A stretch of 64,000 nt of DNA from the NCBI GenBank assembly GCA_001399795.1, contig LIHK01000056.1:89873-153872 (forward strand), read 5' to 3'. Position numbers and translations under genes: made by a program. Positions within the stretch are counted from its first letter, which is position 1; each line of letters opens with the position of its first letter. Source of the DNA: Candidatus Bathyarchaeota archaeon BA2. Its GTDB lineage: Archaea; Thermoproteota; Bathyarchaeia; Bathyarchaeales; Bathyarchaeaceae. The notes beneath the pieces are model-generated. The model had not been told where the DNA came from and made no database searches. It worked only from the letters and a program-made list of their open reading frames with translations. Below, piece by piece: positions 3,578-62,939 of the stretch.

Positions 3578-3629
3578 AAGCGTCCCTTCCTCAATTCCCT
3601 AATTATCCTTTCTCTTCCAAGAACTTTTA

Positions 3630-21996: not shown

Positions 21997-22031
21997 TAAA
22001 TTAAAATCTTAACTTTTTAATTATTACAGGT

Positions 22032-22268
22032 ATGACAAATAAAAGAATAACACCTGAAAAATGTACTAATTGCTTAACCTGTCAGCTTATATGCTCTTAT
22101 TTGCATACGCGCAGTTTTAATCCCTCAAAATCAAAGATTAAAATAAAGCCTGGATATTTCAAAAATGGCGCTTGGATATCTAACCAAATAAGTTTTGAAA
22201 ATTGTGTGAAAGGATGTGGGCTCTGTATTAATTATTGCGTGTATGGCGCTATAATGGTGGATGAGTGA
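22032..22268 (+). CDS. Small 4Fe-4S ferredoxin-like protein coupled to AOR
   Basis: CTNCLTCQLIC and CVKGCGLCINYC motifs; 4-nt overlap with the downstream AOR gene. Confidence 0.6.
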   Translation: MTNKRITPEKCTNCLTCQLICSYLHTRSFNPSKSKIKIKPGYFKNGAWISNQISFENCVKGCGLCINYCVYGAIMVDE

Positions 22269-33542: not shown

Positions 33543-33592
33543 GTTTCATCTACCCAAAAATTGAGGAAAAATCTCCTTTATTATGGTAATGT

Positions 33593-34222: not shown

Positions 34223-34248
34223 CTATCTTTCTCCATTAAATAAGCCGA

Positions 34249-36411: not shown

Positions 36412-36414
36412 ATG

Positions 36415-37635: not shown

Positions 37636-37669
37636 GGGAAACAGTCCTTTAAACAGATCTTAATCAACA

Positions 37670-38110
37670 TTATGGTTTACTTAGATTCTTAAGGAAGTCA
37701 ACTATTTTCCTCACCATCACCTCAGCATTTTCCACGGTTGATGGATACTCAACTTTCAAAATTGGGATTTCCTTCTGTCCAAGTAGATATTTAACTAAAA
37801 TATTTGTCCGAGCGCACCCGGAGCAACCGAAGGCGAAGTCTGCGTTTTCTATGATAACGGCGGCTTCAGCTTGATCTATAAGCGGACCTAATATTCCCAT
37901 TCTACCTCTAATTCCGGATGGAGTTTCAACCGCCACATACCTTAACCCTCGAATAAGCTCTTCCTCGCTCACATTGAGAGGAGGACTATCAATTTCAGGT
38001 GTAGTAACTTTTTTCCTAATTTCCTCCATAATTACAATGGGTTCATGACCGAATCTTTCTACTAGATCTGCTAAAATTAAACTATTTGGAGGAAATACGA
38101 AGACCTTCAT
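37670..38110 (-). CDS. mmp5: Methanogenesis marker protein 5-like
   Basis: [24 protein letters not shown]...GCSGCARTN; about 146 aa; ATGA overlap with the upstream gene. Confidence 0.55.
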
Positions 38111-38553
38111 GATCTCCTTGCCCATCCATGTTTCTTAATTAGCTTTCTAATCATCTGAATAGGAACTATTTTCTCTTCTGGAGGCTTTGCAACTATGACT
38201 TTTTCTTTCGCTTCCAATGATTCAAGAGCAGCTCCTATTAAAGGGAGCAGTTGATGTTCAAATTCTATAAAGTGGAGGCCTGGTCTTGGGCCTCCACCCT
38301 TACTGGCTCGACATATTCGAATATCCCCGGGGGGATAGGCTCGAACTTTAGAAAAAATGTGATGTTTATCGACCTCCCCGATTTTTTGAAGCAACTCCTT
38401 TACCGCATTTTTCTTCCCTTCAACGATTAGGCCGAAACATGTTTCCTTCATTTTCAGCGTTAACTTTTGACTTATTAAATACTGGTAAAGGAGGGGTGGC
38501 GTGAGATCTGAATTTGGGGAAATTACAAATATACGCGCTTCTGTTTCCTTCAT
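38107..38553 (-). CDS. mmp6: Methanogenesis marker protein 6-like
   Basis: 148 aa; [12 protein letters not shown]...[19 protein letters not shown]; 4-nt overlap with the upstream gene. Confidence 0.55.
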
Positions 38554-40103: not shown

Positions 40104-40353
40104 GCGTGTTCTAAGATAGAAAATGGATGAATAATAGAAAAAGGTTGTGGGCACTGACACAATCTAGCTGAATTGAACATTTCCATGCTTTAACGGGGAA
40201 GTCGATGCTGGCGAGGTACTGTGAGGCTGGTGTTAGAAGCAGGGTTGTTATGTGTAGCTTAGTGATAGTTGATACAGACTGTAACTAATACAAACCTTTT
40301 TATTTTTAGACTCTGATTTACATACTCACGAAATAAGGTTTATAACAGTTAAA

Positions 40354-47685: not shown

Positions 47686-47810
47686 TTTTGCCATGAAAAA
47701 ATGCTTCCACCAAGAAACGTCCATGTTAGCCAATCCATGGCTAAAGGGAGAAGAATTGAGGCTATTTCATGCTCTTTTAAAGGCGCGAAGCGCCATGTAC
47801 GTTTAGTCGG
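47686..47810 (+). repeat. Dispersed structured repeat, copy 2 (long form)
   Basis: TTTTGCCATGAAAAAATGCTTCCACCAAGAAACGTCCATGTTAGCCAATCCATGGCTAAAGGGAGAAGAATTGAGGCTATTTCATGCTCTTTTAAAGGCGCGAAGCGCCATGTACGTTTAGTCGG; 186 nt downstream of mcrA. Confidence 0.7.
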
Positions 47811-48776: not shown

Positions 48777-50141
48777 TTATGTGAGCGTACTATGTCTAGT
48801 ATCCTTATAGAATTCCTTTAATATAATCGTGATTAACCTAATTTCTTCTCCTTGCTTTTTTACCTCTCGCAAAAATGTGTTGTATAGTTCATTTGTGATG
48901 GGTAGGGGTCGAGACCTAACCATTGAAGCTGTGAGCATTAAATCGAATGCTCTTGCCTCTGCAACCGTTAATTTATGTAAAACGCCGAGTTTACTGGAAT
49001 CTTTAATGAATACAGGGTTCTCCTCCCGAGATAATTGGACAACTTCCCCGGCTAGTAAGGTTCCCGGTAAAGGGTCCGCTATGCTTATAGAATAATCATC
49101 CAACATTAGTTCCTCCACCAACTCTTTGGTTTCAGCATAATCTTCGTCTGTCTCCCCAGGGTATCCAACGATGAAAGCCCCCGCCACCTCCAACTTGGCT
49201 TCGCGGGCTCTTTTAACTCCCTCCATAATTTTGTCAACCGTTATTCCTTTCCTCATTTTAGCAAGTATTCTGTTGCTCCCAGATTCCATTCCATAAATAA
49301 CAAATCCAATCGTATACTTTCTAACAGCTTTTAACATAGCTTCATTAACCATGTCTACCCTCAGGTCGGGAACTGAAAGATTGTAGGGTCCCGTTATTCG
49401 GCTAACTTCTTTTAGCATGGTGATAAATGCTTCATCATTTAATTTAGACCCCTTACAGCCATATTGATTTGATGTACCCCCAAAAAGCGCTATTTTTTGT
49501 GCTCCAGCTTCTACGAAGGCTTTTACCTCCACAACTATGTCATTTACTGGACGCGATCGGACTTCACGACCGAAGAAGCATGGAACTTGACAGAAACTAC
49601 AATTCCCTAAACAGCCCCTATGCGTCTCTATATAAACATTAGCCCCTCGAATGTTTTGCCGTCCAATATTTTGAGGAATCTCCGGTAAGGCTCGGCCATC
49701 TAAACTGGCTGGCTTCCGGGGATGGGTCTTAACCATCTCGTTATCATGTTTAAACGATATCCCGTTAACTTCCTCTAAATTCCTCTTGGTTTTGAGGGCT
49801 TCTATGAGTTCGGGGGCTGTTTCTTCTCCCTCACCAATTACAACCACATCTATTTCCGGCAAGATTCTGAAGACAAGTTCGGAAATTTGGCTTATGGGAC
49901 CGCCAACTATGATTAAAGGTTTCAAGCCTACTTTAAGCTTTGAAACTAACTCCCTTGCATTTAAGAGATGAGAAACGGAGGTTAAACTTAAACCGATAAT
50001 ATCCATGCCCATTACGTTTTGTGGGCGAAGATTATTGAATAAACTAATTTGGTGTCCTCCTTTTTTTAATATACCACCAATTAACATTGCTCCATAAGAG
50101 AATACTTCTGGTGAAATTATTGCAATTTTCACCCTTCCCAT
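48777..50141 (-). CDS. B12-binding-domain radical SAM enzyme (class B)
   Basis: N-terminal Rossmann-like B12 domain (KIAIISPE...LIIVGGP...VVIGEGE), then HRGCLGNCSFCQVP (CX3CX2C). Confidence 0.8.
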   Translation of the reverse strand: MGRVKIAIISPEVFSYGAMLIGGILKKGGHQISLFNNLRPQNVMGMDIIGLSLTSVSHLLNARELVSKLKVGLKPLIIVGGPISQISELVFRILPEIDVVVIGEGEETAPELIEALKTKRNLEEVNGISFKHDNEMVKTHPRKPASLDGRALPEIPQNIGRQNIRGANVYIETHRGCLGNCSFCQVPCFFGREVRSRPVNDIVVEVKAFVEAGAQKIALFGGTSNQYGCKGSKLNDEAFITMLKEVSRITGPYNLSVPDLRVDMVNEAMLKAVRKYTIGFVIYGMESGSNRILAKMRKGITVDKIMEGVKRAREAKLEVAGAFIVGYPGETDEDYAETKELVEELMLDDYSISIADPLPGTLLAGEVVQLSREENPVFIKDSSKLGVLHKLTVAEARAFDLMLTASMVRSRPLPITNELYNTFLREVKKQGEEIRLITIILKEFYKDTRHSTLT

Positions 50142-50214
50142 CTAAATCCCGCATTAACATTTTTTAAGTTCAAGGATTCCCTAATAAAATATGAGAGCTA
50201 CTGGCTGTTGAGTA

Positions 50215-51969
50215 TTGTCCCTTAAATGGGTGACTTTAATCATGACGCGTAGAGACACCGCAGTTCGGGTAGTTAATTTATCTAAAAGCTATACTCTCGA
50301 GTGTGGGGAGAAAGTTCGAGTTCTAGAAAATATCTCCTTTAATCTTTATCGAAACGAAATTTTAGGATTTATTGGCAGAAGTGGTGGGGGTAAAACAACA
50401 CTTATCCGAGTGCTTAGGGGTGTTGAGCCCTTTGATGAGGGGGAAATTTGGATTAACAATGTTCACCTCACTCCTAAGGCATCAGAAGATGATATAAGGA
50501 AAGTTCGCGAAACAACTGCCATACATCTTCAACGCTCTTTTGGCCTTTGGGCGGCAAGCACCCTAGAAAATGTGATGAGACGACTATATGCCTTAGAGAC
50601 AGGAGACGAAACTGCTCCACTCCCATACGACGAGTCCGACTATAGGAGACTTGAGGAGGAGAGTATGAGGATACTTAAAGCAGTAATGTTAGCTCAAAAA
50701 GCTAATCATCCCGCACATACGCTAAGCGGCGGGGAAAAGCAAAGACTGGTGTTGGCAAGGCAACTTGCAATGGCCAGCCGAAAGCCAATAACATTACTAT
50801 TAGACGAGCCTGTTACAATGTCTTGTCTGGCAACAAAACAAGTAGCCTTGGACTGGATTAAAAAAATACGGGATCAACTTGACGTATCCATAATTATTGC
50901 TTCCCATCTCCCCTCCATCCTCAAATATCTAGCGGATAGGGCGATTTGGCTGGAAAAGAAGATTATTGCAGTTGGCAAACCCAAGGAGATCATCGACAAA
51001 TTTCTCGCCCAAATGGAGGTACCCGTAAGTTTGAAAACCGTACCTAGATCTAAAAAGAAGATCATTAAGGTTCAAGACTTAACCCAAAGCTACCGTGCTG
51101 AAATATCTGAGGATTCATTTGAAATGAAAAACTTGAATTTTGAGGTTTACAATGGGGAAATCCTAGTTATAATTGGTCCATCTGGAGTAGGAAAAACTGT
51201 TTTAATTCGTTTACTCTCAGGATTGGAGCTTCCTGAAAAAGGTAAGGTACTTTATAAGCTGGAAAATAAAAGGGTGAACATCGCAAAATTAGGCTATGAA
51301 GCCGTGATGACCCGTAGAAGGATCGGCGTGGTTCATCAAGAATTAGATTTGGCCTACGGCGCTACAGTCAAGGATTTAGCTTTGGCGAGGCTTGGATTAA
51401 AGGGTGAAAAAGCGTTAATTATGGCCAAAGAAAAGGCGAAGGAGTTGGGGTTGAAGGAGGAGATTGTGGATTCTATCTATCGGTTGTGGGATTACCCAGA
51501 ACGGGAAATGATTAAAAAATTTGAGAAACTGGGATTAGAAAAAGAGGTGGTAAAGAGTCTTTTCCCAATTGCCCCCTGGGAAGCCGTATCAGAAATGTTT
51601 GAACCGATGTTTAGACTATTCAATTTATCACCCGATCTGTTAAATAGGAAATCTCACGAATTGTCGGGTGGGGAGAAAATAAGAGTTGCCATCGCTCTAG
51701 AACTCCTCTCTAGGCCAGAGGTCCTCTTTTTAGATGAACCTTTCGGTGACTTAGATCCGATAACTCTTAGAAACTTGTCAAACGTTCTAAAGTTTGTCAA
51801 CAATGAGTTTAATGTAACCATAGTCCTTGTGAGTCATCATGTGGATTTTGTTAAGGAAGTTGCCCATCGAGCAATACTCATGAGGGAAGGAGAAATAGTG
51901 GAAGAAGGAGACCCGATAAAACTTTGTGAACGCTTTATCGGGGAAAGCCAAGCTCAGTTTATTAACTAA
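50215..51969 (+). CDS. Double-ABC ATPase, component-A2-like paralog (lacks the Zn-ribbon insert)
   Basis: Two ABC cassettes: GRSGGGKTT / LSGGEKQRLVLARQL / LLLDEP and GPSGVGKTV / LSGGEKIRVAIALEL / LFLDEP. The A2-like IIASHLPSILKYLADRAIWLE is present. Confidence 0.65.
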   Translation: MSLKWVTLIMTRRDTAVRVVNLSKSYTLECGEKVRVLENISFNLYRNEILGFIGRSGGGKTTLIRVLRGVEPFDEGEIWINNVHLTPKASEDDIRKVRETTAIHLQRSFGLWAASTLENVMRRLYALETGDETAPLPYDESDYRRLEEESMRILKAVMLAQKANHPAHTLSGGEKQRLVLARQLAMASRKPITLLLDEPVTMSCLATKQVALDWIKKIRDQLDVSIIIASHLPSILKYLADRAIWLEKKIIAVGKPKEIIDKFLAQMEVPVSLKTVPRSKKKIIKVQDLTQSYRAEISEDSFEMKNLNFEVYNGEILVIIGPSGVGKTVLIRLLSGLELPEKGKVLYKLENKRVNIAKLGYEAVMTRRRIGVVHQELDLAYGATVKDLALARLGLKGEKALIMAKEKAKELGLKEEIVDSIYRLWDYPEREMIKKFEKLGLEKEVVKSLFPIAPWEAVSEMFEPMFRLFNLSPDLLNRKSHELSGGEKIRVAIALELLSRPEVLFLDEPFGDLDPITLRNLSNVLKFVNNEFNVTIVLVSHHVDFVKEVAHRAILMREGEIVEEGDPIKLCERFIGESQAQFIN

Positions 51970-52435
51970 ACTTGTAGTTTAGTCAACTTCTAGGGTTTCG
52001 GGAGAATTGCGTTTTCCGAAATTCTGCAATTATTGGAACTATTTTTCAAAAGGGATTGATGAAATGGAGACCGCCTAATCTATTAGAGAGTAGTTATGGC
52101 TCTTTTAAAAACATCTCGTATATGTTGATGTGTTGTCGCCTTTAGTTCATCAAAAGCTTCTTTCATGTAGTAGTTACTTACTTATAGAAGAATGGCATTT
52201 CTCTTCAACTCAGTGCTTTCAGGTGTCTCAAGCAGTTCAATAACACAATACAAGTTGTCGTGTTCTTGTATTGTTTTAAATCTTCTAGTATTTTTTGCTC
52301 TGCCAACTTCTTTATTTGTTGAGCCCAGTGCAATCCCTTGGATTTTAGTTGGTGTTTTTCGAGGTCTTCTAATCCTCAAGCCCCTATTCCTTCTGCATCT
52401 AAAGTCATTTGGACACCTAATTTTTAGCAGAAGAC

Positions 52436-52687
52436 TTACACTTTCTTTAGATAAGGATTTGCACATTTTGGGCATTCAGGCTCTCTTAAAGCCTCTTCGG
52501 GGTCTCCCATCCACGCACACCTGGGACATTGTAGCTTTCCGTCTCTCCTTTTTAGAATCCTGAAAGTCTTGATGTGACCTGTGAGGCAATCAGGGCAAAC
52601 TGGAACAAAAGCGGCTTCTTTGTCGTCTCCCTTCCATCCGCAGGTGCATTCCAACAACAGGTTCTCCACCCTCTTACTTTTTACCAA
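52436..52687 (-). CDS. Small multi-zinc-ribbon protein
   Basis: 83 aa with CTC..., CPDC, CPRC, CPKC pairs; overlaps the stop of the upstream QueG-like gene by 14 nt. Confidence 0.5.
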   Translation of the reverse strand: MVKSKRVENLLLECTCGWKGDDKEAAFVPVCPDCLTGHIKTFRILKRRDGKLQCPRCAWMGDPEEALREPECPKCANPYLKKV

Positions 52688-53525
52688 CAGGGCAAACTTC
52701 TGCGCAAATTTGACAATACGGAAAGTCTCCCTTTTCTCTTTGCCACTTCAGGTATTCTGTTATGAGTGGATATTTAGCGCTATACCTTGGGAGCACTATC
52801 AACGCTGTAGGTCTTGCATTTATCCAGTCACTAGGAGGAATTTCAATCTTAGAAAGACGAACTAATCCTTGAATTCCCCATAGATGTCTATTCAAGTCAA
52901 AATTGTAAGGGGGCGCCTTTTCTCTACTCAGGGCCTGAGGTGGACAGGCCTCCACGCATCGGAAGCACTTTCTGCAGGTTTCTTCATATATTTTTCCAGC
53001 CAACCGGGGACCATCCGGCTTTAGTGGGGCATTAGTGATTATGCTGGTTAATTCAATCCTTGGTCCCCACTCTGGAGTTAATAAGAAGTTGTTGGCACCT
53101 ATGTCCCCCAGACCAGCTATCTGACCTACATACCTATGTGAAAGCATGCAGCTAACCCAACGTCTTTCATCTACAGAAATGTTGGGGTCGAGAGGCACGG
53201 CGCTGTAACCTTTCTTCTCCAAAAACTTAGTTAGGATCATGGATTTCTCGCGTAGCTCATCTTGCAATGTTTGTTTTACAGTGGCAAAGGTAGACAGGAC
53301 TATGAATATGTCTTCTTTTGATTGTTCGAAAGCACCTTCTGGATACTTAATGCATAATGATATTATGGACTTAGCGTCCTTTAGGATTGAGAAAGGTGAT
53401 GTGAAGAACATCGGGGTTTTATCTGCTCTTTCGGCCTCTGCAACACCAACTTTGTCAAGTCCTATGCTCAGTGCGTTTTGTTTAACTTCACTTGTTAATA
53501 TTTCATCATATGTCAAAATTGTCAC
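52674..53525 (-). CDS. QueG / reductive-dehalogenase-family 4Fe-4S protein
   Basis: SHRYVGQIAGLGDIGANNFLLTPEWGPRIELTSIITNAPLKPD, CRKCFRCVEACP, CQICAEVCP. Confidence 0.55.
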   Translation of the reverse strand: MTILTYDEILTSEVKQNALSIGLDKVGVAEAERADKTPMFFTSPFSILKDAKSIISLCIKYPEGAFEQSKEDIFIVLSTFATVKQTLQDELREKSMILTKFLEKKGYSAVPLDPNISVDERRWVSCMLSHRYVGQIAGLGDIGANNFLLTPEWGPRIELTSIITNAPLKPDGPRLAGKIYEETCRKCFRCVEACPPQALSREKAPPYNFDLNRHLWGIQGLVRLSKIEIPPSDWINARPTALIVLPRYSAKYPLITEYLKWQREKGDFPYCQICAEVCPVGKK

Positions 53526-53526
53526 C

Positions 53527-55119
53527 TCAAAATCCAGTTGAAATCAAAGCCTTTTTCTCTGTTTCCACCATGATGTTTACAACATCTTCCGGGTCGCCAA
53601 TAGTTTCTATTTTACCATTTCTCATGTAAGCAGCTCGATCGCACGCTATCCTGATGAAGTCAATATCATGGCTTATGATTAAATATGTTTGCCCTAAAGC
53701 GTCTCTCGCGTTTCTAATGCTCCTCGCAATCTCAACCCGCGTTATTGGATCCGCAGTGCCAGTCGGCTCATCCAACAGCACGATCTTAGGTTCCTTCATA
53801 AGAGAACGGGCGATACATACTCTATGTCTTTCTCCCTCACTAATCTGGTCTGGATATTTGTAAAGCAAGTATTCTATTTCTTTATCTGTAAAGTTTACCC
53901 CCCTCAAAACCTCGTAGGCCTTTTTGGTCTTTTGTTCTTCTGGCAAGGGTTCTTCCACAGCGCCAACAAGGTTCTCTAGAATTATTCTTCCGGCGTGCAA
54001 CGTGTACTCTTGGTGTAGAATATCCATTTTTGATGCAATCATTCCTCTTTCATCAGGTCCAGGAATACTCATGTCAAACCATTCTTCTCCTCTCTTCACC
54101 AGTATTTTGCCAGTGGTTGTAGGCTTTATGCCCATCATCATGTGCGCCAACGTAGTCTTTCCGCTTCCACTAAGACCCACAATTCCGAATATTTCACCTT
54201 CATATATTTTAAGATCAACGCCGTCCACTGCCTTCACGAGACCTCTATCGAATGTGTAATACCATTTCTTTACACCCTCACACTCCATTATCGGGTTGGT
54301 TCCTCTATACCTTTCAACTTGCACTTTTTCCACTTTCTCCATAAAAGCATTGTAGACATCTTCGGATTTTCCCATCACAGTTAACTCTCCGTTTTCTAGT
54401 AGGGCAGCCTCTTCAGATAACGCTTTAATAGCTTCTGGCCAATGCGAGGTTATGACAAGAGTTATGTGATCCCTATTGACGGCTTCCCTAATCACTTCAT
54501 GCACCACTTCGCTGGTGATCGGGTCCAAGGTGCCTGTGGGCTCGTCTGCAAGGAAAAGCAACGGATTCCTCGCTAAGCACATGGAAAATATGACTCTTTG
54601 CTTTTCGCCTCCGGAGAGGTCTCTTCCCAGATGAAGAAGCCGATGATCCAGCTTGACATGTGATATAAGCTCCGCAGCCCTCATGTCAATTTCCCCCTCG
54701 GGGTATCCGACGCTGATCAAAATTCTTCTGACGTTTTCTATGGCTGGAAATTCGCTGTATAGAGAGAAGCCTCGTTGAGGCATGATCGCGATCCTGTCAT
54801 GTAGCGTCAAGGACAGTCTAGTTTGCTTCTTCAACTCCTCCCAGTAATCAACCTCTCTAAACTCCATCGTCGTGGAGCACTTGGGGCATGGTTCCTCCTT
54901 CTTGGAAGGATACTCGACCCAGTGACAGTTAGGGCAATATGAAAGCCTGAAGATAATTTGTCCGTATGTCGGTTCATATTCAAGGATTCCCCTAATTGAC
55001 TGCATGATAATAGATTTCCCGTGACCGCTTTTGCCTAGTAGTCCAAAGGTTCCCCCTTCCCTAATTGTGAATGATATGTTTTTGATTATGGGGAGCCCTC
55101 TGACGAACTCTTTTGTCAA
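53527..55119 (-). CDS. atwA: Methyl-coenzyme M reductase system component A2 (double-ABC ATPase)
   Basis: GKSGHGKSIIMQSIRGILEYEPTYGQIIF, Zn-ribbon insert CPNC...CPKC, DLSGGEKQRV, FLADEPTGTLDP, ITSHWPEAI, and a second cassette GLSGSGKTT. Confidence 0.8.
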   Translation of the reverse strand: MTKEFVRGLPIIKNISFTIREGGTFGLLGKSGHGKSIIMQSIRGILEYEPTYGQIIFRLSYCPNCHWVEYPSKKEEPCPKCSTTMEFREVDYWEELKKQTRLSLTLHDRIAIMPQRGFSLYSEFPAIENVRRILISVGYPEGEIDMRAAELISHVKLDHRLLHLGRDLSGGEKQRVIFSMCLARNPLLFLADEPTGTLDPITSEVVHEVIREAVNRDHITLVITSHWPEAIKALSEEAALLENGELTVMGKSEDVYNAFMEKVEKVQVERYRGTNPIMECEGVKKWYYTFDRGLVKAVDGVDLKIYEGEIFGIVGLSGSGKTTLAHMMMGIKPTTTGKILVKRGEEWFDMSIPGPDERGMIASKMDILHQEYTLHAGRIILENLVGAVEEPLPEEQKTKKAYEVLRGVNFTDKEIEYLLYKYPDQISEGERHRVCIARSLMKEPKIVLLDEPTGTADPITRVEIARSIRNARDALGQTYLIISHDIDFIRIACDRAAYMRNGKIETIGDPEDVVNIMVETEKKALISTGF

Positions 55120-55549
55120 ATTTTTAACTATAAGAAAATTGTCAGCCAGATTTACTCACCGAGTATTATTAGACCTTCACTATATAAATTATTTTTGAGA
55201 ATTTAGAGAGGCTGAAAAGTTTGAGAGACTGCAAGTTTTTCCATTAGCCGCATCATGAGGATGTGAATACAAACCTAGTTGAAGATGAAGTGTAGACGCT
55301 GAACCAATTCTGAGGTCTGTTTAGGTCGTCGTGCCCGGCTCTATAAGTCTTAGAAGTTCATGATGCAACTTGTATTCTTCATGCTTTCTGTTATTAACGT
55401 TTATCATGCCAAAGCTCAACTTATCCGAGCCTTCCAAGATTTCTTATTGCCAGCTCAGATTCTGGCATAAATTCCTTTGTAATTTCAGCGTAAACATTAA
55501 ATAATTTGAGAAATTATAATTTTTTGTTTTAGCGAGAAAGGGACGAGTA

Positions 55550-56941
55550 TTGTCAAACCTGTCTTTAAAATATAAAGATACATTAGACCTATACGATGAT
55601 CATTCCAATTGTATTGCAAAAGAAGTGCCGCTGCAAGCTCTCTCACCGTTATATAACCCCTATATGAGGGAGGTTTTAAATCTTTTCAAAAGAACAGCTT
55701 TTATTGACCTAGCCAAGCTGGAGCAATATGTAAAGTCTGGAAGAGCAGGCTGGGAAACAGTCGTTGGGCAAGATGAGATTCAAATGCCTTGGTACGGTAG
55801 GGACCTGCCTATGGTTGAGCGTTCAGAGGAAATAGCTGAGAGAATAAAAGAGAAAATCGCAAAATTCGATGACGGAGAGGAGGAGCTTGTGAAGCCTGTA
55901 GCAGGTGGCAAGCTAATCATTGTTAAGATACCGAGAAGAATGATGGAAGTTTCAGCCAGCCGCGACCCACCGCTCACATGGACGATGGTGGCTTTATGTC
56001 AAGCTATATCTGAAACTTTCAATTTGAATCCTGAAACTGACCCGGATGGCTGCAACATGGTGAGAGGAGCCATCTTTGGAAGGTACCCTCAATCCCCTGA
56101 GTTGCCTCCTGGTGGACCTGTTTTCGGACTTTTGAGGCAAAGCAACATCGTGGACGGTTTGGGGAGCGGGTTTAGAGGAATAATGGTGAATCACATTGTG
56201 GCCCTAGTTAATAAAAGAACTATGGACGGTGTTGCTTTAGCCACAATTTTGGAACAAGGTGCACAGTGGGAGATGGGTAACGTGTTGGGATGGTTTGAAA
56301 GATATAATCTCCTTGCGTCAGCCTACCAAGGCTTCAACGCAAACAATCTTGTTCTAGACCTCGTTCTGGAGAACAGGGAGGGAACTATAGGAGACGTTGC
56401 ACGTAGCACGGTGAAAAGGGCTGTAGAGGACGGGGTCATAAAAGTCAAAAAAACTTTTCCATCGGGGTACAAGGTCTATAGTACGAGTGACTATCCTCTT
56501 TGGAACGCATATGGTTGCGCTGGAGTGCTAGCTGCGGTAATAGTTAACGTTGGAGCGAGTAGAGCTGCACAAAGTGTTTCAACCGTTACAGGTTATTTTG
56601 GCGACCACTTGATTTTTGAGACTGGGGGGTTACCTGACCCTGACACTGGCAGAATTGAAGGCACAGGCATAGGCTATGCGTTCTACACCCATTCCATATA
56701 TGGCGGAGCGGGTCCTGGTGCGTATACTTTAGACCATGTTGTCGTAAGGAGTACCTCAGGTTTCTTAACTCCATGTGTCGTTGCAGGTATGTGTCTCGAT
56801 TCTGGAACTCAACTTTTCTCTCCTGAAATGACCTCCAGTGCTTTGTTCAAGATAAGAGATCACATGCCGTTACTCAACGAGCCGTTGAAAAAAGTGGCTG
56901 AGGCAGCTGAAAAGGTTAAAGGAGAATTAACAAAGGCATAG
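55550..56941 (+). CDS. mcrB: Methyl/alkyl-coenzyme M reductase beta subunit
   Basis: YKDTLDLYDD at the N-terminus; HSIYGGAGPGAYTLDHVVVRSTSGFLTPCVVAGMCLDSGTQLFSPE parallels the canonical HSIYGGGGPG...CVAAA..DAGTQMFSPE; TTG start. Confidence 0.9.
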   Translation: MSNLSLKYKDTLDLYDDHSNCIAKEVPLQALSPLYNPYMREVLNLFKRTAFIDLAKLEQYVKSGRAGWETVVGQDEIQMPWYGRDLPMVERSEEIAERIKEKIAKFDDGEEELVKPVAGGKLIIVKIPRRMMEVSASRDPPLTWTMVALCQAISETFNLNPETDPDGCNMVRGAIFGRYPQSPELPPGGPVFGLLRQSNIVDGLGSGFRGIMVNHIVALVNKRTMDGVALATILEQGAQWEMGNVLGWFERYNLLASAYQGFNANNLVLDLVLENREGTIGDVARSTVKRAVEDGVIKVKKTFPSGYKVYSTSDYPLWNAYGCAGVLAAVIVNVGASRAAQSVSTVTGYFGDHLIFETGGLPDPDTGRIEGTGIGYAFYTHSIYGGAGPGAYTLDHVVVRSTSGFLTPCVVAGMCLDSGTQLFSPEMTSSALFKIRDHMPLLNEPLKKVAEAAEKVKGELTKA

Positions 56942-56942
56942 T

Positions 56943-57761
56943 TTGAAGGTGATGCACGTGGCAAGTGAAAAGAGAGAGGAAAAAAGTGAATTCGAGCCTC
57001 AAATCTACCCTGGACAGGATGAGGTGTCAGAAAGAAGGAGAAAGCTTTGGGATAAGCGTCGACGCCTAACAAAGTATCGAGACGTACCAGACGATGACAT
57101 AACCCGCCTTCTGGGTCATAGGCCGGTTGGAGCACTATATGTAAGTGTCCATCCACCTCTTGATGAACTTATAGAACCATACGACCCGATAAAAAGTCTA
57201 GTTGCTCCGACACCAGGGGCGAGAGCAGGGGATAGGATAAGATTTGCTCAGTTTTCAGATAGTTTTTGGCATCCTCCAATAACTCCCTATGCTAGGCAAA
57301 GACTCTATTTTAATAGACTCAGAGGTGTCGATGTTGTCACCTATAGCGGCAGAACAATGTTAGAGATGAGGGAGCGGGATTTAGAAACAGCTGTAAAGCC
57401 TCTAATCGAAACCGAAGTATTCAACCCAGCTAGAACAAGTTTGAAAGGAATAACTATTCACGGACACTCTTTAAGGCTTGATGAAGATGGCCTAATGTTC
57501 GACGCTAGGCGAAGATTCGTTTACGATAAAGAGACAGGCGAGGTAGTTTACATTAAGGATCAATTCGGCAAAGTTTTAGACAGGCCAGTGCCAGTCGGGC
57601 GCCCCCCCTCAGAAGAGGAATGTAGAAAACTGAGTATAACCTACAGTTGGGATACCCGACAATTTAAATCCAGAACCGAAGTAATAGAGCTAATCTCAAG
57701 AGTTGCAAATATGAGGGTATTGGCAGGATTCAATCCCGAATCAATCAACGAGGAGATTTAA
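56943..57761 (+). CDS. mcrG: Methyl/alkyl-coenzyme M reductase gamma subunit
   Basis: PQIYPGQDEVSERRRK, FAQFSDSFWHPP, MLEMRERDLE, GHSLRLDEDGLMFD align with McrG. The true start may be ATG 56952 or GTG 56958. Confidence 0.9.
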   Translation: MKVMHVASEKREEKSEFEPQIYPGQDEVSERRRKLWDKRRRLTKYRDVPDDDITRLLGHRPVGALYVSVHPPLDELIEPYDPIKSLVAPTPGARAGDRIRFAQFSDSFWHPPITPYARQRLYFNRLRGVDVVTYSGRTMLEMRERDLETAVKPLIETEVFNPARTSLKGITIHGHSLRLDEDGLMFDARRRFVYDKETGEVVYIKDQFGKVLDRPVPVGRPPSEEECRKLSITYSWDTRQFKSRTEVIELISRVANMRVLAGFNPESINEEI

Positions 57762-58096
57762 ACCTGAGGTTATGGCGCTCCCAAACTAACCAATATTATT
57801 AAAGCTCCCTTTGGATCGTATACATTTTTTCTTTATCTCGGAACACGTTAGTTTGCGATCCTGTAACCTGTACATTAAGTCCGAAGTTAAATGTAAGCTA
57901 ACCAATTTTTATCTCCTGATTCCAAGTCCTTGCTTAGAGATAGATGAATTAACGACTTCTTTAAGTAAATATCTAGTTTCCAAAGCATGCCGCATTTACA
58001 ACAACTATCTGTGGTGAAGATGAAAACCCGCCTGCTAGTTCTTCTAGACTTAGGTTAACAAACTTTTTTGCATGCCAATTTTTAATTAGTACAGCT

Positions 58097-58225
58097 ATGA
58101 CAAATAAAAGAATAACACCCGAAAAATGTACTAATTGCTTAACCTGTCAACTTATATGCTCTTATCTACATACACGCAGTTTTAACCCCTCAAAATTAAG
58201 GATTAAGATTAAAATAACGCTCTAA
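58097..58225 (+). pseudogene. Truncated copy (42 codons) of the AOR-coupled ferredoxin-like gene
   Basis: MTNKRITPEKCTNCLTCQLICSYLHTRSFNPSK is identical to the first 33 aa of ORF 22032. There are 6 nucleotide differences in about 100 nt, all synonymous, followed by divergence and a stop. Confidence 0.6.
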
Positions 58226-58365
58226 AATATGAATATTGCCGTTTCATGGCTTAAACTAACCCCTTTTCAGCCAAATAAAGCTTAAGAAAATTTTACGCCA
58301 AACCCCTGAAGGTGGAAACTTTAAATAAGAAAATGGGCAGCTCAGAACTTTGGAGAGTAGAGTGA

Positions 58366-59187
58366 ATGGAGCTGAAACTTCTTCGAGTAGACCTTTCGAC
58401 AGAAATCATCAAAGAAGAGAAAGTAGACGAAGCAACAACCAAGAAGTTTGTGGGAGGCCGTGGAGTCGGAGTAAAGATCCTTTTCGATGAACTTAAACCA
58501 GGAACAGACCCATTAGGTCCAGAAAACAAGCTGATCTTCATGACGGGTCCGGCTACAGGAACAGCATTTCCAGCGAGTGGAAGATTCCACGTAATTACCA
58601 AATCCCCCCTCACAGGCAGGATCGGGGATACAAACTGCGGTGGCAACTGGGGTCCAGAACTGAGATTCGCTGGCTTTGAGGGTATCATTTTTGAAGGAAA
58701 GGCGAAGGAACCTGTTTACCTTTGGGTTCACGAAGGCGAAGCCGAACTGCGAAGCGCTAGAAAATATTGGGGTAAGGGGGTCTGGGACACTGAAGATGGG
58801 ATTTGTGAAGAACTCGGGGAACCCAAGGCAAAGATAGCGAGCATAGGGCCAGCAGGCGAGAACCTAGTTTTATCCGCAGCCATTATGAACGACAAACACA
58901 GAGCGGCTGGCAGAACGGCTGCAGGAGCTGTAATGGGTTCCAAAAACTTGAAAGCTATAGCAGTCCATGGAACAGCCAAACCCCCCGTGGCTGACCCAGA
59001 AGGATTACGAGAGACTGTAAAGAGAATTCTAGAAAAACTTAAAGAGAACATGGTCACTGGCGAATCGCTTCCAACCTATGGGACCTCTGCCCTAATTAAT
59101 GTTATCAATGCATTTGGCATCTTTCCGACTCGTAACTTCCAAACTGGAGTATTCCCTACGGCTGAGAAGATAAGTGGTGAAACAATA
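58366..59187 (+). pseudogene. AOR-family gene, N-terminal fragment (codons 1-274), interrupted by an insertion
   Basis: LLRVDLS..., GGRGVGVKILFDE, GPATGT, AGAVMGSKNLKAIAVHGT, ...FPTAEKISGETI, then out-of-family sequence and a stop. Confidence 0.8.
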
Positions 59188-61496
59188 AATTTCATGTTTT
59201 CCATAAATCTATTTTGAAATCTCCAATTAGCAAAAGCGGTGAACATGGATTGGTAAGTATGTACCACTCAAAACACGTACTCCGCTCCTAAAAACAAAAG
59301 GATAAAATAACGGTTATACCGACTATTTGGTTCTCTAGGGGTCTAGAATTGTTTGGTTACATGGGAAAGATTTTAAGAGTTGACTTGTCAAAATCAAAAA
59401 TAACCAAAGAATTTCCTGATGAGAACACTCTTAAGATGTTTTTGGGCGGAAGCGGACTAGCAACCAAATATCTCTTTGATGAAGTTAAAAAGGGAACAGA
59501 CCCCTTGGGCCCAGAAAACAAGCTAATATTCACGACTGGACCTTTAACTGGAACGCCGTCACCTACTACTGGAAGATATACGGTAGTCGCCAAATCTCCC
59601 CTTACTGGTTTTTGGGGGCAGGCAAACTCAGGTGGTTTTTGGGGAGCAACTTTCAAAAGGTCGGGTTTTGACGGAGTAATATTTGAAGGTATCTCACCGA
59701 AACCAGTCTACCTTGTTACCGATGACGGGAAGGCCGAGCTTAAAGATGCAAAAGACCTCTGGGGTAAGAACACTTCAGAAACTACAAGATTGATCAAAGA
59801 GGAGCTTGGAGAGAATTTCCGTGTCACTTGTATAGGCGTTGCTGGAGAGAATCTAGTCAAATACGCTGCTATCATAAATGACGCTGATAGACCAAACTGG
59901 GGCAGAGCGGCTGGAAGATGCGGAATGGGAACCGTAATGGGTTCGAAACGCTTGAAAGCTATCGCTTCAAGAGGGACAATAAAGATCGAAGTGGCAAAGG
60001 AAGATGCTTACAGGGAAGAGGCCAAAAAAAGATACAACTGGGTTAAGGAGGAAGTAGAGAAAACAGCCACTCTTTCATACTTCTTTAGGAGGTATGGAAC
60101 GGCCGTTGCCCTTGATTTCGTGAACATTCGGGGTGGACTTGCAACCAGAAATTGGCAAACCGGCGTCTTTCAAGGTGCAGACAATATAAACGGACCTGCA
60201 ATTGTAGAAAAGATTCTTACAGACAAAAAAGCTTGCTTTGCGTGTCCACTCTCTTGTGGAAGAATATCTGAAATTAAAACAGGACCATATGCAAGCAAAG
60301 GAGAAGGCCCGGAATGGCAAGCTCTTGCAGCTTTTGGTAGTAAGTGTGGAATCGACAATCTAGAAGCAATTACCTACGGGCAATTTCTATGCAATGAATA
60401 TGGTCTCGATTTTATTTCTGCTGGAAATACAATAGCTTTTGCTATGGAATGCTATGAGAAAGGAGTATTGACCAAAAAAGACACCGACGGATTGGAGCTT
60501 AAATTTGCCGATTCTGATGTCATGATAGAACTTGTGCACAAAATAGCTAAAAGGGAAGGCGTTGGAAATCTACTAGCCGAAGGAACAAAGATCGTCTCAG
60601 AAAAACTGGATAAAGGAACCGAAAAATTTGCTATGCATGTTAAAGGTCTAGAGCTGCCAGGTTATGATCCCAGAGCTGCCAAGATAGCTGGGCTAGCCTA
60701 TGCTACTGCAAATCGAGGAGGTTGCCACACGACGGCTTACATAGCAGTCTTGGTTTTTATTGGAATACCCTCCTTTCTTGAAGAAATCGATGTTGGAGAT
60801 ATACTTCAGGAAATTCCTGAAACTGCTAAGGTTGTCAAAGATCTGGAGGATGTGCTTGCCGTTTTTGATGCGATGGGGGGATGCAAATTTATGGGAATGG
60901 TTTCAACCACAGAGGACTGGGCAACTTTGATATCGAATCTTACCGGCTGGGAATTTACTACAAAGGACTTTAGAAGAACTGGTGAGAGAATTTACAATCT
61001 TGAAAGAGCCTTTAACATAAGAGAGGGATTAACTAGAGCCGATGATACTCTTCCAAAGCGTTTACTAGAGGAACCAATGCCCGAAGGCCCAGCTGAAGGA
61101 CAGGTAGTAAATCTAAATCCACTCTTGGATGCTTATTACGAGTTTCGTGGATGGGACAAGAAAACTGGCAAACCAACTCCTGAGAAGCTTAAAGAACTTG
61201 GACTAGATGAGGTAATTAAAGAGATTTACTAGCGATAAAACCTAAACCCAAACACCTGATTATTCCTTGCCCGAAATAAAAGAAAACTTAAGAATAGCTA
61301 AGATGAAGGAAAAGGGAGAAATAAGTGGTTAAACTAGTTTTCTAAACTGCTAGAAGTCCACTTTCTCCCCCTTGAACGCACAAACAACCAACACCCTAGC
61401 TTATACACAAAAGGTTATTGTTTGAAGTTGGCATTTAAGCCTTAAGTATAAAGTTCGGAGGTTTTAACCATGGAAAATATGCACACCTAGACAATA
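59188..61496. other. 2309-bp inserted segment carrying an intact AOR paralog, flanked by 6-bp direct repeat ACAATA
   Basis: ACAATA lies at 59182-59187 and 61491-61496. Excising the segment fuses ...ISGETI to AKTVLVKNKPCWGCTIACGR in frame. Imperfect subterminal inverted repeat CAT(G/A)TTTTCCAT. No transposase gene. Confidence 0.6.
59349..61232 (+). CDS. Aldehyde:ferredoxin oxidoreductase (tungstopterin AOR family), intact
   Basis: 627 aa; KILRVDLS, GGSGLATKYLFDE, GPLTGT, CFACPLSCGR, GLELPGYDPRAAKIAGLAYATANRGGCH, DAYYEFRGWDKKTGKPT. Confidence 0.9.
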   Translation: MFGYMGKILRVDLSKSKITKEFPDENTLKMFLGGSGLATKYLFDEVKKGTDPLGPENKLIFTTGPLTGTPSPTTGRYTVVAKSPLTGFWGQANSGGFWGATFKRSGFDGVIFEGISPKPVYLVTDDGKAELKDAKDLWGKNTSETTRLIKEELGENFRVTCIGVAGENLVKYAAIINDADRPNWGRAAGRCGMGTVMGSKRLKAIASRGTIKIEVAKEDAYREEAKKRYNWVKEEVEKTATLSYFFRRYGTAVALDFVNIRGGLATRNWQTGVFQGADNINGPAIVEKILTDKKACFACPLSCGRISEIKTGPYASKGEGPEWQALAAFGSKCGIDNLEAITYGQFLCNEYGLDFISAGNTIAFAMECYEKGVLTKKDTDGLELKFADSDVMIELVHKIAKREGVGNLLAEGTKIVSEKLDKGTEKFAMHVKGLELPGYDPRAAKIAGLAYATANRGGCHTTAYIAVLVFIGIPSFLEEIDVGDILQEIPETAKVVKDLEDVLAVFDAMGGCKFMGMVSTTEDWATLISNLTGWEFTTKDFRRTGERIYNLERAFNIREGLTRADDTLPKRLLEEPMPEGPAEGQVVNLNPLLDAYYEFRGWDKKTGKPTPEKLKELGLDEVIKEIY

Positions 61497-62463
61497 GCGA
61501 AAACCGTTTTAGTTAAGAATAAGCCCTGCTGGGGTTGCACCATAGCCTGTGGACGAGTTAGCCGCGTGGTCAAGCCGCCTTATCAAGTTGAGGGCGAAGG
61601 TCCTGAGTACGAAACCGACTGGTCCCTGGGAGCTCAATGCGGTATCGACGATCTGGACGCCATAACTAAAGCTCACAATATTTGCGATGAAATGGGCATT
61701 GATCCAATATCCTTTGGAAACACCGTAGGTTGTGCAATGGAACTTTATGAGAAGGGAAAAATACCCAAGGAAAAACTCTACGGACTTGAATTAAAGTTTG
61801 GTAATTCTCAAGCAATAGTGGAACTGGCTTGGAGAACTGCCTACCGCATTGGTTTTGGCAACGACATAGCGTTAGGGGCTAAACGTTTAGCAGAGAAGTA
61901 TGGAGCTCCTGAGATCGCCATGCACGTTAAAGGCTTGGAACTCCCTGCCTACGACCCACGAGGCGCCAAGGGGTACGGTTTGGCGTATGCCACATCTAAC
62001 CGTGGAGGATGTCACCTAAGAGCCTACATGATCGCCCCAGAAATTCTAGGTATTCCAGAGAAGCTCGACCCGCTCAAGACAGAAGGGAAGGCATCATGGG
62101 TTAAAACGCTCCAAGACGTCTGCTCAATATGCGACTCGCTTGTTCGTATGCAAATTCTTGGCCTTTGCGCTAGGGGCTGAAGACCTCATCAATCCCATTA
62201 CGGGATGGAATTGGTCCACAGACGACCTCTTAAAGACCGGTGACCGCATCTACACGCTTGAGCGCATGTTCATCAACCGAGAGGGCTTCGACCGAAAAGA
62301 CGACACACTCCCACTGAGGTTACTGAAGGAACCCATGCCTGAAGGTCCCGTCAAAGGGCATGTTGTTGAGCTAGAAAAGATGCTTGATGAATACTACGAG
62401 GCCAGAGGCTGGAAAAACGGCAAGCCCACAAAAGAGAAACTAGAGGAGCTAGAGTTAACTTAA
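61491..62463 (+). pseudogene. AOR-family gene, C-terminal fragment (continuation of 58366-59187) with an additional 1-nt frameshift near 62144
   Basis: The frame opens exactly at 61491 after a TAG: TIAKTVLVKNKPCWGCTIACGRVSRVVKPPYQVEGEGPEYE...GLELPAYDPRGAKGYGLAYATSNRGGCH. DSLV then shifts frame into CKFLAFALGAEDL...EYYEARGWKNGKPT. Confidence 0.8.
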
Positions 62464-62498
62464 TCTTCTTTTCTTTCCTCCTTTTTTGGTGACTCGAA

Positions 62499-62759
62499 AT
62501 GCCTAAAGTTACTGTTCGGGCGTTTGCCACCTTGAACGGACTTCTCGGATCAAAAACCATGGATGTTTTCACCCTTGGCTCAACAATTAGGGAGCTGATA
62601 GACCTTATTGCGACAGAGTATAACCCACAATTCAAGGATCGGTTAATTGACCCAAAAAAAGGCGAGGTTCATAAATTCTACAGAATACTCATTAACGGTC
62701 GGGATATTGATTTTCTGGATATATTGGAAACAAAAATGAAAGAGGGCAACATTTATTAG
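62499..62759 (+). CDS. MoaD/ThiS-like beta-grasp protein, apparently C-terminally truncated (no terminal Gly-Gly)
   Basis: MPKVTVRAFATLNGLLGSKTMDV...ILINGRDIDFLDILETKMKEGNIY*. The stop codon lies inside repeat copy 3. Confidence 0.55.
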   Translation: MPKVTVRAFATLNGLLGSKTMDVFTLGSTIRELIDLIATEYNPQFKDRLIDPKKGEVHKFYRILINGRDIDFLDILETKMKEGNIY

Positions 62760-62840
62760 CCATGAATTGGCTAAAGGGAGAGGAATTGAAGGTTTTTCAT
62801 GCTCCTTTTAAGGGCGCGAAGCGTCATGTACGTTTAGTCG
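62745..62840 (+). repeat. Dispersed structured repeat, copy 3 (short form)
   Basis: ..TTAGCCATGAATTGGCTAAAGGGAGAGGAATTGAAGGTTTTTCATGCTCCTTTTAAGGGCGCGAAGCGTCATGTACGTTTAGTCG; overlaps the 3' end of the MoaD-like ORF. Confidence 0.7.
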
Positions 62841-62939
62841 AAAGTGAAAATCTTTCTGAATTATAGCCTAATTAATTGGATGAGGAAGAAACTTTAAATT
62901 AATCGAATGTGTTTGGTGCTAGCAATTCCTAGAAGCAAA

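Follow-up and report, generated by a model that had tools for sequence, protein, structure and literature searches.

An archaeal AOR gene interrupted by a chromosomal fragment that carries an intact AOR paralog

In the analysed stretch of DNA (64 kb, referred to as the window), which comes from a Bathyarchaeota genome bearing methane enzymes, a resident aldehyde:ferredoxin oxidoreductase (AOR) gene is interrupted by a 2.3-kb insert that carries a complete AOR paralog, termed AOR2. The locus is a real, one-off recombination scar and not a new mobile element. It probably arose by a single illegitimate (non-homologous) insertion of a chromosomal fragment into the resident gene.

The split AOR gene and its insert

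The features of the locus are as follows:

58366..59187, plus strand: N-terminal fragment of the host AOR pseudogene, codons 1-274 (Pfam AFOR_N 2-199/199 and AFOR_C 1-60/385; gap-free against orthologues)
59182..59187, plus strand: left copy of the 6-bp direct repeat ACAATA, host codons T-I (read from the sequence)
59188..59348, plus strand: insert, left flank: the portion of the native GYD-AOR2 intergenic region that adjoins AOR2 (alignment to L006, L007 and L089)
59193..59204, plus strand: 12-bp inverted repeat, left arm (CATGTTTTCCAT), separated from the insert end by 5 nt
59349..61232, plus strand: AOR2, intact AOR paralog of 627 aa (Pfam AFOR_N 1-199/199 and AFOR_C 5-385/385)
61233..61349, plus strand: 3' spacer of AOR2 joined to deletion scars of an AMP-binding (acyl-CoA synthetase-like) gene (alignment to relatives)
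61350..61391, minus strand: what is left of an iron-containing alcohol dehydrogenase (Fe-ADH) gene, namely its 3' end, closing with VVCAFKGEKVDF and a stop (match to the C-terminus in relatives)
61392..61476, plus strand: native intergenic region upstream of SCP2, common to the divergent DeoC-like gene (alignment to L088, L089 and L007)
61470..61481, plus strand: 12-bp inverted repeat, right arm (ATGGAAAATATG), separated from the insert end by 9 nt
61477..61490, plus strand: 14 nt, ATATGCACACCTAG, junction filler or diverged donor sequence (no convincing match in the alignment to relatives; no significance in local alignment tests)
61491..61496, plus strand: right copy of the direct repeat ACAATA (read from the sequence)
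61497..62463, plus strand: C-terminal fragment of the host AOR pseudogene (Pfam AFOR_C 59-274 and 275-385 in two frames; orthologue alignment)
62499..62759, plus strand: ThiS/MoaD-like gene, marker of the resident operon (Pfam ThiS, under the curated cut-off)

The N-terminal host fragment belongs to an open reading frame (58366-59217) that reads ...AEKISGETI up to 59187 and ends at a stop codon within the insert (59215-59217). On the other side, the host frame resumes as TIAKTVLVKNKPCWGCTIACGR directly after a TAG at 61488-61490. Taken together, the host pieces cover AFOR_N 2-199 and AFOR_C 1-60, 59-274 and 275-385, with no part missing and none duplicated. In-silico excision of 59188-61496 yields a single continuous host AOR frame. 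The repaired protein has 595 aa, close to the approximately 596 codons of the original prediction, and is gap-free at the junction in comparison with orthologues of 68-83% identity. Excision, Pfam coverage and orthologue alignment confirm the predicted split of an AOR gene by an insert with an intact paralog, and all other sequence details of the original prediction proved correct. A derivation of the two fragments from different AOR genes, named beforehand as what would overturn this reading, is contradicted by the complementary Pfam pieces and the gap-free junction.

The host AOR is a pseudogene in decay, probably since the insertion. The frameshift expected near 62144 is a +1 shift at 62142-62145, where dropping C62145 gives back DSLVVCKF as found in the orthologues, and a 9-nt in-frame deletion lies in the C-terminal fragment between 62184 and 62185. 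With a dN/dS of 0.05-0.07 against the orthologues, the gene was strongly constrained until recently. The ThiS/MoaD-like gene downstream lacks a C-terminal GG, and the same order of host-type AOR and ThiS is found in the loci L003, L004 and L005. Locus L001 differs from the window only downstream, from 62580 onward, which corresponds to the strain-variable 3' end of ThiS. A partial duplicate (134 bp) of a ferredoxin gene start directly precedes the host AOR.

AOR2 starts with TTG (an alternative ATG is found at codon 5). Within the insert, 161 bp precede it and 264 bp, with the right-hand ACAATA counted in, follow it; about 160 and 264 bp had been predicted. A conserved TATA-like block, ATAAAATAA, is located in the left flank at 59302-59310. 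Both AOR2 and the joined host fragments cover the full AFOR_N profile followed by the full AFOR_C profile and hence belong to the AOR family. The two proteins share 52% identity, which matches the roughly 50% estimated by eye. Compared with its orthologues in native context, AOR2 is 82-84% identical at the amino acid and 84-86% at the nucleotide level. Its dN/dS of 0.18-0.26 indicates that it is still under purifying selection and, judging from the sequence, AOR2 is still a working gene. It is apparently single-copy in the assemblies. Base composition was considered as a clue to foreign origin and is not decisive: the GC content of AOR2 (43.0%, z = -0.1) is typical of the window, and that of the host AOR (48-49.5%, z = 1.9-2.5) is rather high but not outside the range seen in other genes.

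A removable intervening sequence, i.e. an archaeal bulge-helix-bulge intron or an intein that would leave the host AOR expressed, has a negligible chance of accounting for this arrangement. The ends of the insert can pair as a 12-bp RNA helix if G-U pairs are allowed, but the minimum-free-energy fold contains this stem only, and no bulge-helix-bulge candidates (4-bp helix, two 3-nt bulges) were found around both junctions. Furthermore, the downstream 'exon' is frameshifted and carries the 9-nt deletion, and the insert comprises an entire gene together with its promoter region. An intein is incompatible with the in-frame stops, since the host frame terminates at 59215-59217 and the gene inside is complete and separately framed.

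The region 58366-62463 is base-for-base identical in contig DAEP01000083.1 of GCA_002509245.1, as well as in an assembly that was made from run SRR2132206 with MEGAHIT (k127). Both public assemblies come from this one run, and their agreement is one at the assembly level. That the nested arrangement is an artefact of assembly or binning, namely a chimeric contig, is very improbable. This common run, and the fact that the window and L001 differ only downstream from 62580, could be taken as pointing that way. De Bruijn assemblers, however, misjoin only at long shared k-mers, and the junctions share just 6 nt; the outer fragments are, unlike those of a chimera, exactly complementary parts of one gene, and no base within 58366-62463 differs among the window and the two public assemblies.

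Chromosomal origin of the insert

According to the alignments with relatives, the insert is ordinary chromosome, apparently what remains, after shrinkage, of a native bathyarchaeal GYD-AOR2-...-DeoC/ArgRS locus. In related Bathyarchaeia, the gene order is GYD - AOR2 - AMP-binding - Fe-ADH - SCP2 - DeoC/ArgRS, and the non-coding flanks of the insert share 74-94% identity with the native flanks of the AOR2 orthologues. On the left, 59190-59315 is 79% identical to L006 3451-3575, and L007 and L089 align as well. From the alignment to L006, the left breakpoint precedes the GYD start codon by about 50 bp.

On the right, a 30-nt internal relic of the AMP-binding gene (61255-61284, PDYSLPEIKE) is 90-93% identical to the interior of this gene in L007, L088, L089, L090 and L091 and is followed by the 3' end of the gene and spacer. 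The surrounding 61244-61353 is 86% identical to L006 5485-5594, which bears the same deletion scar. The Fe-ADH relic matches the C-terminus ICAFNGEKVNF* of L006, L007, L088 and L089. The adjoining region 61392..61476 is 94% identical to L088 9219-9302 (L089, 81%; L007, 74%), and its last 7 nt, ATGGAAA, open the DeoC-like ORF; the downstream ORF of L088 belongs to the DeoC family. The right breakpoint is thereby located 7-21 nt into the DeoC-like ORF. The relics occur in the same order as the intact genes of L007, L088, L089, L090 and L091. Since L006 has AOR2 in its native place and shares both the AMP-binding deletion scar and the TTG start with the insert, these two traits are older than the move.

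A DDE/MITE-like element would be expected to be distinct from conserved chromosomal synteny, yet here both flanks and the relics are collinear with it. What is found is ordinary DNA with breakpoints at arbitrary donor positions, as expected of an illegitimate insertion.

The fragment presumably stems from the copy of this genome itself or from the DNA of a close relative. The donor locus was searched for and not found. The GYD, ArgRS, Fe-ADH and SCP2 genes of the relatives have no match in the window, and the search with ArgRS and the look-ups of P0256, P0247 and P0332 led to other organisms only. A contig search with AOR2 returned only relatives at ≤75% identity. In L168, ArgRS directly adjoins GYD and the entire AOR2 block is absent. 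On the target side, no host-AOR homologue above 83% identity was found among 5.8 billion proteins. The best host-orthologue loci (L003-L005) have the downstream AOR-ThiS pair in common and differ in their upstream genes; none of them contains the unoccupied site.

Junction sequences and routes of insertion

As predicted, ACAATA is present at both junctions (59182-59187 and 61491-61496). A single copy suffices for the host gene, as in a target-site duplication, and the chance of a 6-nt identity at a fixed junction is approximately 3-6 x 10^-4 given the base composition. The predicted imperfect subterminal inverted repeat was found as well (59193-59204 and 61470-61481), with arms that are 11/12 complementary. 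Random or shuffled controls contain an equally good inverted repeat within their terminal 30-60 nt in 0.2-0.9% of cases (P = 0.002-0.009). The outermost nucleotides of the insert are not complementary, so that the terminal inverted repeats of DDE/MITE elements are lacking. Judging by the relatives, both arms are largely native donor sequence. L006 carries CATGTTTCCCAT at the native position homologous to the left arm (11/12 identical). In the right arm, nt 1-7 are the DeoC-like gene start as in L088, whose sequence matches 9/12 nt of the arm. By our own count, these homologous native sequences (L006 left, L088 right) are only 7/12 complementary to each other.

In the 64-kb window, neither further copies of either insert end nor other paired copies of the inverted-repeat motif were found, the latter having four other single matches. 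The insert contains no transposase, as originally stated, and no transposase or integrase Pfam domain was detected among ORFs of ≥120 aa across the entire window. Rfam families and tRNAs were not found in the window either.

The original prediction had suggested a non-autonomous cassette or an unknown integration mechanism. In a transposable cassette, a transposase from elsewhere would have recognized the 12-bp inverted sequences and moved the insert into the host AOR by cut-and-paste with a 6-bp duplication. In its favor are the 6-bp direct repeat without loss of target bases and the 11/12 inverted repeat ≤20 nt from both ends, and the apparently single-copy AOR2 fits cut-and-paste. The repeats, however, are not terminal and have unequal offsets (5 and 9 nt), their arms are largely native, and neither the paired motif nor the end sequences recur in the window, which also lacks a transposase; the gene relics in the cargo would be needless for a defined element. 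The suggestion is not upheld, as nearly all of the insert is collinear with the locus of the relatives, relics included, and a cassette is considered unlikely. A still smaller chance is given to an ordinary chromosomal AOR2 segment made mobile by a putative trans-acting archaeal transposase or recombinase at fortuitously similar 12-bp inverted sequences, likewise by cut-and-paste with a 6-bp duplication. The locus would then capture the moment at which a non-autonomous, gene-carrying element came into being in Bathyarchaeia.

Site-specific recombination of a circular intermediate, in which a tyrosine recombinase (Xer- or integrase-like) would act at an ACAATA core common to the host gene, is improbable. 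The joined insert ends form an imperfect palindrome of 12-bp arms with a 20-bp spacer containing ACAATA. The direct repeat could accordingly be the shared core, and in the circle the crossover point would lie between the inverted arms. Known cores of the Xer, Cre and FLP type span 6-8 nt, and the spacer of 20 nt is far longer; moreover, matching arms are absent from the target site in the host AOR, there is no recombinase gene nearby, no GTTRRRY integron core is present at either junction, and there is no sign of site reuse. An integron cassette was also rejected as a candidate (no GTTRRRY on either strand of the junctions, no integrase in the window), and Xer-type sites were ruled out by reading the junctions.

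Under illegitimate recombination, the fragment would have carried AOR2 and its own promoter region into the resident AOR, which would subsequently have begun to decay, and no dedicated mobility machinery would be involved. The joining was probably microhomology-mediated. ACAATA may have served as the joining microhomology, either through a circular deletion product integrating at the hexamer or through a replicative template switch; alternatively, it may stem from a short staggered break that was filled in. Microhomology-mediated end joining was shown experimentally in Saccharolobus and Haloferax (PMC12019639, PMC12281630); archaea thus possess a repair route of this kind, which was counted in favor of this explanation. 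The other patchwork in the neighborhood, i.e. the ferredoxin-start duplicate and the strain-variable ThiS 3' end, was also counted for a one-off recombination.

Several points speak against illegitimate recombination. The native breakpoints of the relatives show no clear ACAATA; only 'TA' (left) and 'AGACA' (right) could overlap, and an AAACA(A)TA motif is located 38-45 nt beyond the left breakpoint. Extended donor-target similarity at the junctions was not significant in alignment tests in which the sequences of relatives stood in for the donor (P = 0.06-0.99). A clean 6-bp duplication with zero target loss is more typical of staggered cuts of the transposase or integrase type than of end joining, and a 12-bp inverted repeat so close to the ends is, nominally, hard to attribute to chance. 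Finally, an AOR fragment inside an AOR gene is improbable as a random event and is explained only by an appeal to selection. The loss of the resident AOR would have been compensated because the fragment supplied AOR2 with its own promoter region, and the insertion was most likely tolerated because it delivered a working paralog. A transposase or recombinase with CATRTTTTCCAT at its own ends would speak against illegitimate recombination.

Significance and comparison with known systems

The locus provides a clean, datable case of AOR paralog turnover in uncultured archaea, in which the arriving copy knocked out the resident one and both breakpoints and much of the donor context can be reconstructed from relatives. 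It opens neither a new mechanism nor a long-standing question. For the annotation of MCR-bearing Bathyarchaeota (BA1/BA2-like), it is to be read as one working AOR and a three-piece pseudogene rather than four AOR genes. It also cautions that a direct repeat and a nearby inverted repeat alone are insufficient to call a new mobile element.

Among known systems, MITEs and gene-capturing non-autonomous DNA transposons (Pack-MULE-type) similarly show a direct repeat where they have inserted, inverted repeats close to their ends and a cargo gene without a transposase. In contrast to these, the inverted repeats of the insert lie at subterminal positions, are unequally offset and consist largely of native donor sequence. 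Furthermore, a family of copies was not found, and collinearity with a conserved chromosomal locus extends over nearly all of the insert. Integron cassettes and Xer-dependent (dif-module-like) modules likewise move one promoter-proximal gene without its own recombinase and have a short repeated core at the boundaries. The insert differs from them in lacking an attC-like structure, a GTTRRRY core, a dif-like 11-6-11 site and a nearby integrase, and its target lies inside a coding sequence without matching arms. Microhomology-mediated illegitimate recombination (MMEJ, template switching, reintegration of circular deletion products) resembles the locus in its unique event and ordinary chromosomal insert, the 6-bp identity at the junctions, possible filler nucleotides at one junction and the absence of a mobility gene. 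The published archaeal MMEJ events, on the other hand, are mainly small indels or deletions at breaks and not the capture of 2.3 kb, and here zero target bases were lost and the donor-side microhomology is putative.

Structure of the split AOR gene

Three stretches related to aldehyde:ferredoxin oxidoreductase (AOR) genes are found in the region, all on the + strand:

58366-59187, +, N-terminal part of the resident (host) AOR, first 274 residues
59349-61232, +, complete AOR paralog within the insert (AOR2), 627 aa
61497-62463, +, remainder of the host AOR, in two frames

The open frame of the host N-terminal part extends 10 codons into the inserted sequence and ends at a stop at 59217. The original prediction that removal of 59188-61496 recreates a continuous AOR frame was borne out by in silico excision and translation, which gave a single unbroken frame, ...AEKISGETI followed directly by AKTVLVKNKPCWG.... 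The repaired host protein (595 aa) aligns without gaps across the junction to its orthologues (68-83% identity), and the host pieces cover complementary positions of the Pfam AFOR_C profile (1-60, 59-274 and 275-385); the fragments thus belong to one AOR gene. The hexamer ACAATA is present at 59182-59187 and 61491-61496, and a single copy suffices for the host gene. Two lesions are located in the downstream part. The 1-nt frameshift reported near 62144 corresponds to one extra base at about 62145, and removal of C62145 restores DSLVVCKF, matching all orthologues. The second is an in-frame 9-nt deletion at 62184/62185 that is absent from every orthologue. Excision, Pfam matches, orthologue alignment and repeat positions show the earlier description of the sequence to be right in every detail.

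Contig DAEP01000083.1 (GCA_002509245.1) and an independent MEGAHIT k127 assembly, both of run SRR2132206, carry the 4.1-kb segment 58366-62463 without a single difference. The match between the window and DAEP01000083.1 is perfect over 49361-62579, with differences only further downstream. The junctions share 6 nt, far below what a k-mer misjoin needs, and the outer host pieces complement each other exactly to give one gene. An assembly artefact as the source of the nested structure is very unlikely, judged from assemblies of this one run. GCA_002509245.1 has been described as a Bathyarchaeota genome related to BA1 and BA2 with divergent MCR genes (PMC9258230). The MCR set of the window, which fits the BA1/BA2-type Bathyarchaeota of the literature (PMC9258230), includes the following genes:

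45677-47500, mcrA-like gene
55550-56941, mcrB
56943-57761, mcrG

The window also holds mcrC, mcrD and methanogenesis-marker proteins (DUF2099/2102/2112/2113), as well as two double-ABC ATPases. The divergent set is spread over about 25 kb (32694-40160, 45677-47500, 50215-51969, 53527-55119 and 55550-57761), and the mcrA-like gene lies apart from mcrB-mcrG.

Host locus and state of the two genes

A ThiS/MoaD-like gene follows the host AOR, as it does the orthologues at three other loci (L003, L004 and L005); the outer AOR is therefore a resident of the operon. Further patchwork at the locus consists of a copy of a ferredoxin gene start just upstream of the host AOR and a ThiS 3' end that differs between assemblies. 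The ferredoxin copy (58079-58212, 134 bp, 91% identical to 22014-22147) is a partial duplicate and a further scar of illegitimate recombination; it encodes a truncated protein of 42 aa (58097-58225). The full ferredoxin gene (22032-22268; 78 aa, small 2x[4Fe-4S]) overlaps and precedes a third, more divergent AOR-family paralog (22265-24211, 648 aa) with an AFOR_N and a partial AFOR_C match.

After 13.2 kb of identity, the window and GCA_002509245.1 diverge within the ThiS/MoaD-like gene (62580-62908 versus 13220-13694 of the latter's locus) by 11 substitutions, one 1-nt indel and a replaced segment. The C-terminus reads ...KEGNIY* in the window, without Gly-Gly, and ...SPAGGG* in the other assembly; the difference may reflect strain variation or local misassembly. 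A dispersed intergenic repeat of about 125 bp abuts the truncated end in the window. Its copies (21350-21474; 47686-47808, - strand; 62754-62839, - strand) are 87-94% identical and follow an ABC ATPase gene, the mcrA-like gene and the ThiS-like gene, respectively. The repeat contains the hairpin GGCGCTTCGCGCC and additional internal inverted repeats, has no Rfam match, and could be a MITE, a structured RNA or a terminator element. Elsewhere in the window (10966-11517, - strand), a 183-aa protein, of unusual length for an archaeal RpoH, fuses an N-terminal Mrr_cat-like domain (restriction-endonuclease fold) to the C-terminal domain of RNA polymerase subunit H/Rpb5.

Substitution rates of the two AOR genes
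Comparison; dN/dS; dS
AOR2 (window) versus its orthologues; 0.18-0.26; 0.36-0.55
AOR2 orthologues among themselves; 0.10-0.19; 0.34-0.69
Host AOR versus nearest orthologues; 0.05-0.07; 1.5-2.4 (saturated)

The dN/dS of AOR2 indicates that the gene is under constraint, perhaps somewhat relaxed or adapting. The host AOR, by its dN/dS, was functional for nearly all its history and was lost recently. The GC content of AOR2 (43.0%, z = -0.1) is typical for the window, and that of the host AOR (48-49.5%, z about 2) is on the high side, which is not decisive. The nearest relatives by dS are at about 0.4 for AOR2, with none below 1.5 for the host AOR, and the AOR2 fragment may come from a different, related Bathyarchaeon.

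Origin of the inserted segment

AOR2 orthologues (82-84% protein and 84-86% nucleotide identity) are found in a conserved neighborhood in several metagenomic contigs, with the native order GYD(-), AOR2(+), AMP-binding enzyme(+), Fe-ADH(-), SCP2(-) and DeoC-like(+) or ArgRS(-). Both non-coding flanks of the insert match this neighborhood. Over 59190-59315, the left flank shares 79% identity with the GYD-AOR2 intergenic region of a relative's locus, L006, with homology beginning at most 2-3 nt from the junction, and carries a TATA-like block, ATAAAATAA (59302-59310), that is conserved across all relatives. The L006 alignment places the left breakpoint about 50 bp upstream of the GYD start codon. 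The right flank of 264 bp is a chain of scars that begins with the AOR2 3' spacer and continues with:

61255-61284, 30-nt relic of the AMP-binding gene interior (PDYSLPEIKE), then the 3' end of that gene and a spacer
61350-61391, - strand, relic of the last dozen codons of Fe-ADH (...VVCAFKGEKVDF*)
61392-61476, 85-nt stretch from upstream of SCP2, 94% identical to a second relative's locus, L088

The last stretch ends in the 7 nt ATGGAAA, with which a DeoC-family ORF begins in L088. The final 14 nt before the second ACAATA, ATATGCACACCTAG, have no convincing counterpart in the relatives.

In L006, AOR2 is still located beside GYD and carries the same AMP-binding deletion scar as the insert (86% over 110 nt). 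It also starts with TTG (at 3608), as does AOR2 of the window; most orthologues start with ATG. Since scar and start codon are common to the in-place gene, both originated in the chromosome and predate the move. The public gene call uses an in-frame ATG at codon 5 (AOR2 59349-59363). Matching flanks and shared scars identify the insert as a section of ordinary chromosome that is undergoing reductive evolution, and the non-autonomous cassette considered originally is not upheld. By this comparison, the segment was cut at two arbitrary points, intergenic or early in an ORF, and is not a bounded element. No native donor locus for the fragment was found in the window or by look-ups, which landed in other organisms.

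The GYD-ArgRS interval is a gene-loss hotspot among relatives, with stepwise block deletions: L006 has lost AMP-binding and SCP2, and a third relative's locus, L007, retains only a DeoC relic. In a more distant Bathyarchaeon (ERZ25039600 contig_24904, 9258-9337), ArgRS and GYD are immediate neighbors with 80 bp between them, and the entire AOR2/AMP-binding/Fe-ADH/SCP2 block is absent.

Junctions, mechanism and known systems

One illegitimate recombination event most likely made the structure. A chromosomal fragment, either the circular product of a deletion that shrank the native locus or a DNA piece from a relative, would have entered the resident AOR at, or by way of, ACAATA. A single crossover between circle and target at the 6-bp microhomology would leave exactly such a flanking repeat. 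The same structure would result from a template switch during replication that returns through a 6-nt microhomology, or from capture of the fragment at a 6-nt staggered break that has been filled in. The chance that six nucleotides agree at a fixed junction is about 3-6 x 10^-4 (own estimate from base composition). ACAATA is not clearly present at the relatives' sequences matching the breakpoints, and no significant result came from tests of extended similarity between donor and target. Joining through microhomology has been demonstrated by experiment in archaea (PMC12019639, PMC12281630), where the published outcomes consist mainly of small indels and deletions. The insertion may have been tolerated because it brought in a working paralog together with a promoter, which would account for an AOR found within an AOR.

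The same traces, a loss-free 6-bp duplication and a nearby inverted repeat, would also remain if a transposase had acted in trans on cryptic ends. The imperfect subterminal inverted repeat noted originally is indeed present: its arms, CATGTTTTCCAT (59193-59204) and ATGGAAAATATG (61470-61481), are complementary at 11/12 positions, or at all 12 as RNA if one G-U pair is counted. A comparable match in the terminal 30-60 nt occurs in 0.2-0.9% of same-geometry window samples and shuffles, and the repeat is therefore not trivially due to chance. The arms are offset 5 and 9 nt inward from the insert ends. The left arm consists of native intergenic sequence (L006: CATGTTTCCCAT), and the right arm opens with the 7 nt that start the DeoC-like gene in L088 (ATGGAAATTTCG); these native counterparts are complementary at only 7/12 positions (own count). 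The arm motif occurs four times elsewhere in the window, always as an unpaired single copy, and BLAST found no other copies of either insert end in the window. Offset, native arm sequence, the low complementarity in relatives, the unpaired motif hits and the lack of further end copies argue against a transposon end. In agreement with the earlier observation of no transposase in the insert, Pfam scans detected no transposase, integrase or recombinase domain in the window ORFs of 120 aa or more. Action of a transposase in trans is considered unlikely, and the emergence of a gene cassette mobilised in trans slightly more improbable still.

Rfam and tRNA scans of the window gave no hits, and an explicit search found no bulge-helix-bulge motif spanning both junctions. 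In-frame stops and the damage to the downstream host part exclude an intein or a spliced intron.

The insert lacks the terminal repeats and element-specific sequence of MITEs and DDE elements, the attC and GTTRRRY sites of integron cassettes, and the defining features of Xer-type modules, bulge-helix-bulge introns and inteins. Its structure behaves like a microhomology-mediated or illegitimate insertion and is placed in that class. The finding is real and neatly reconstructable, and belongs to an already known kind of event.
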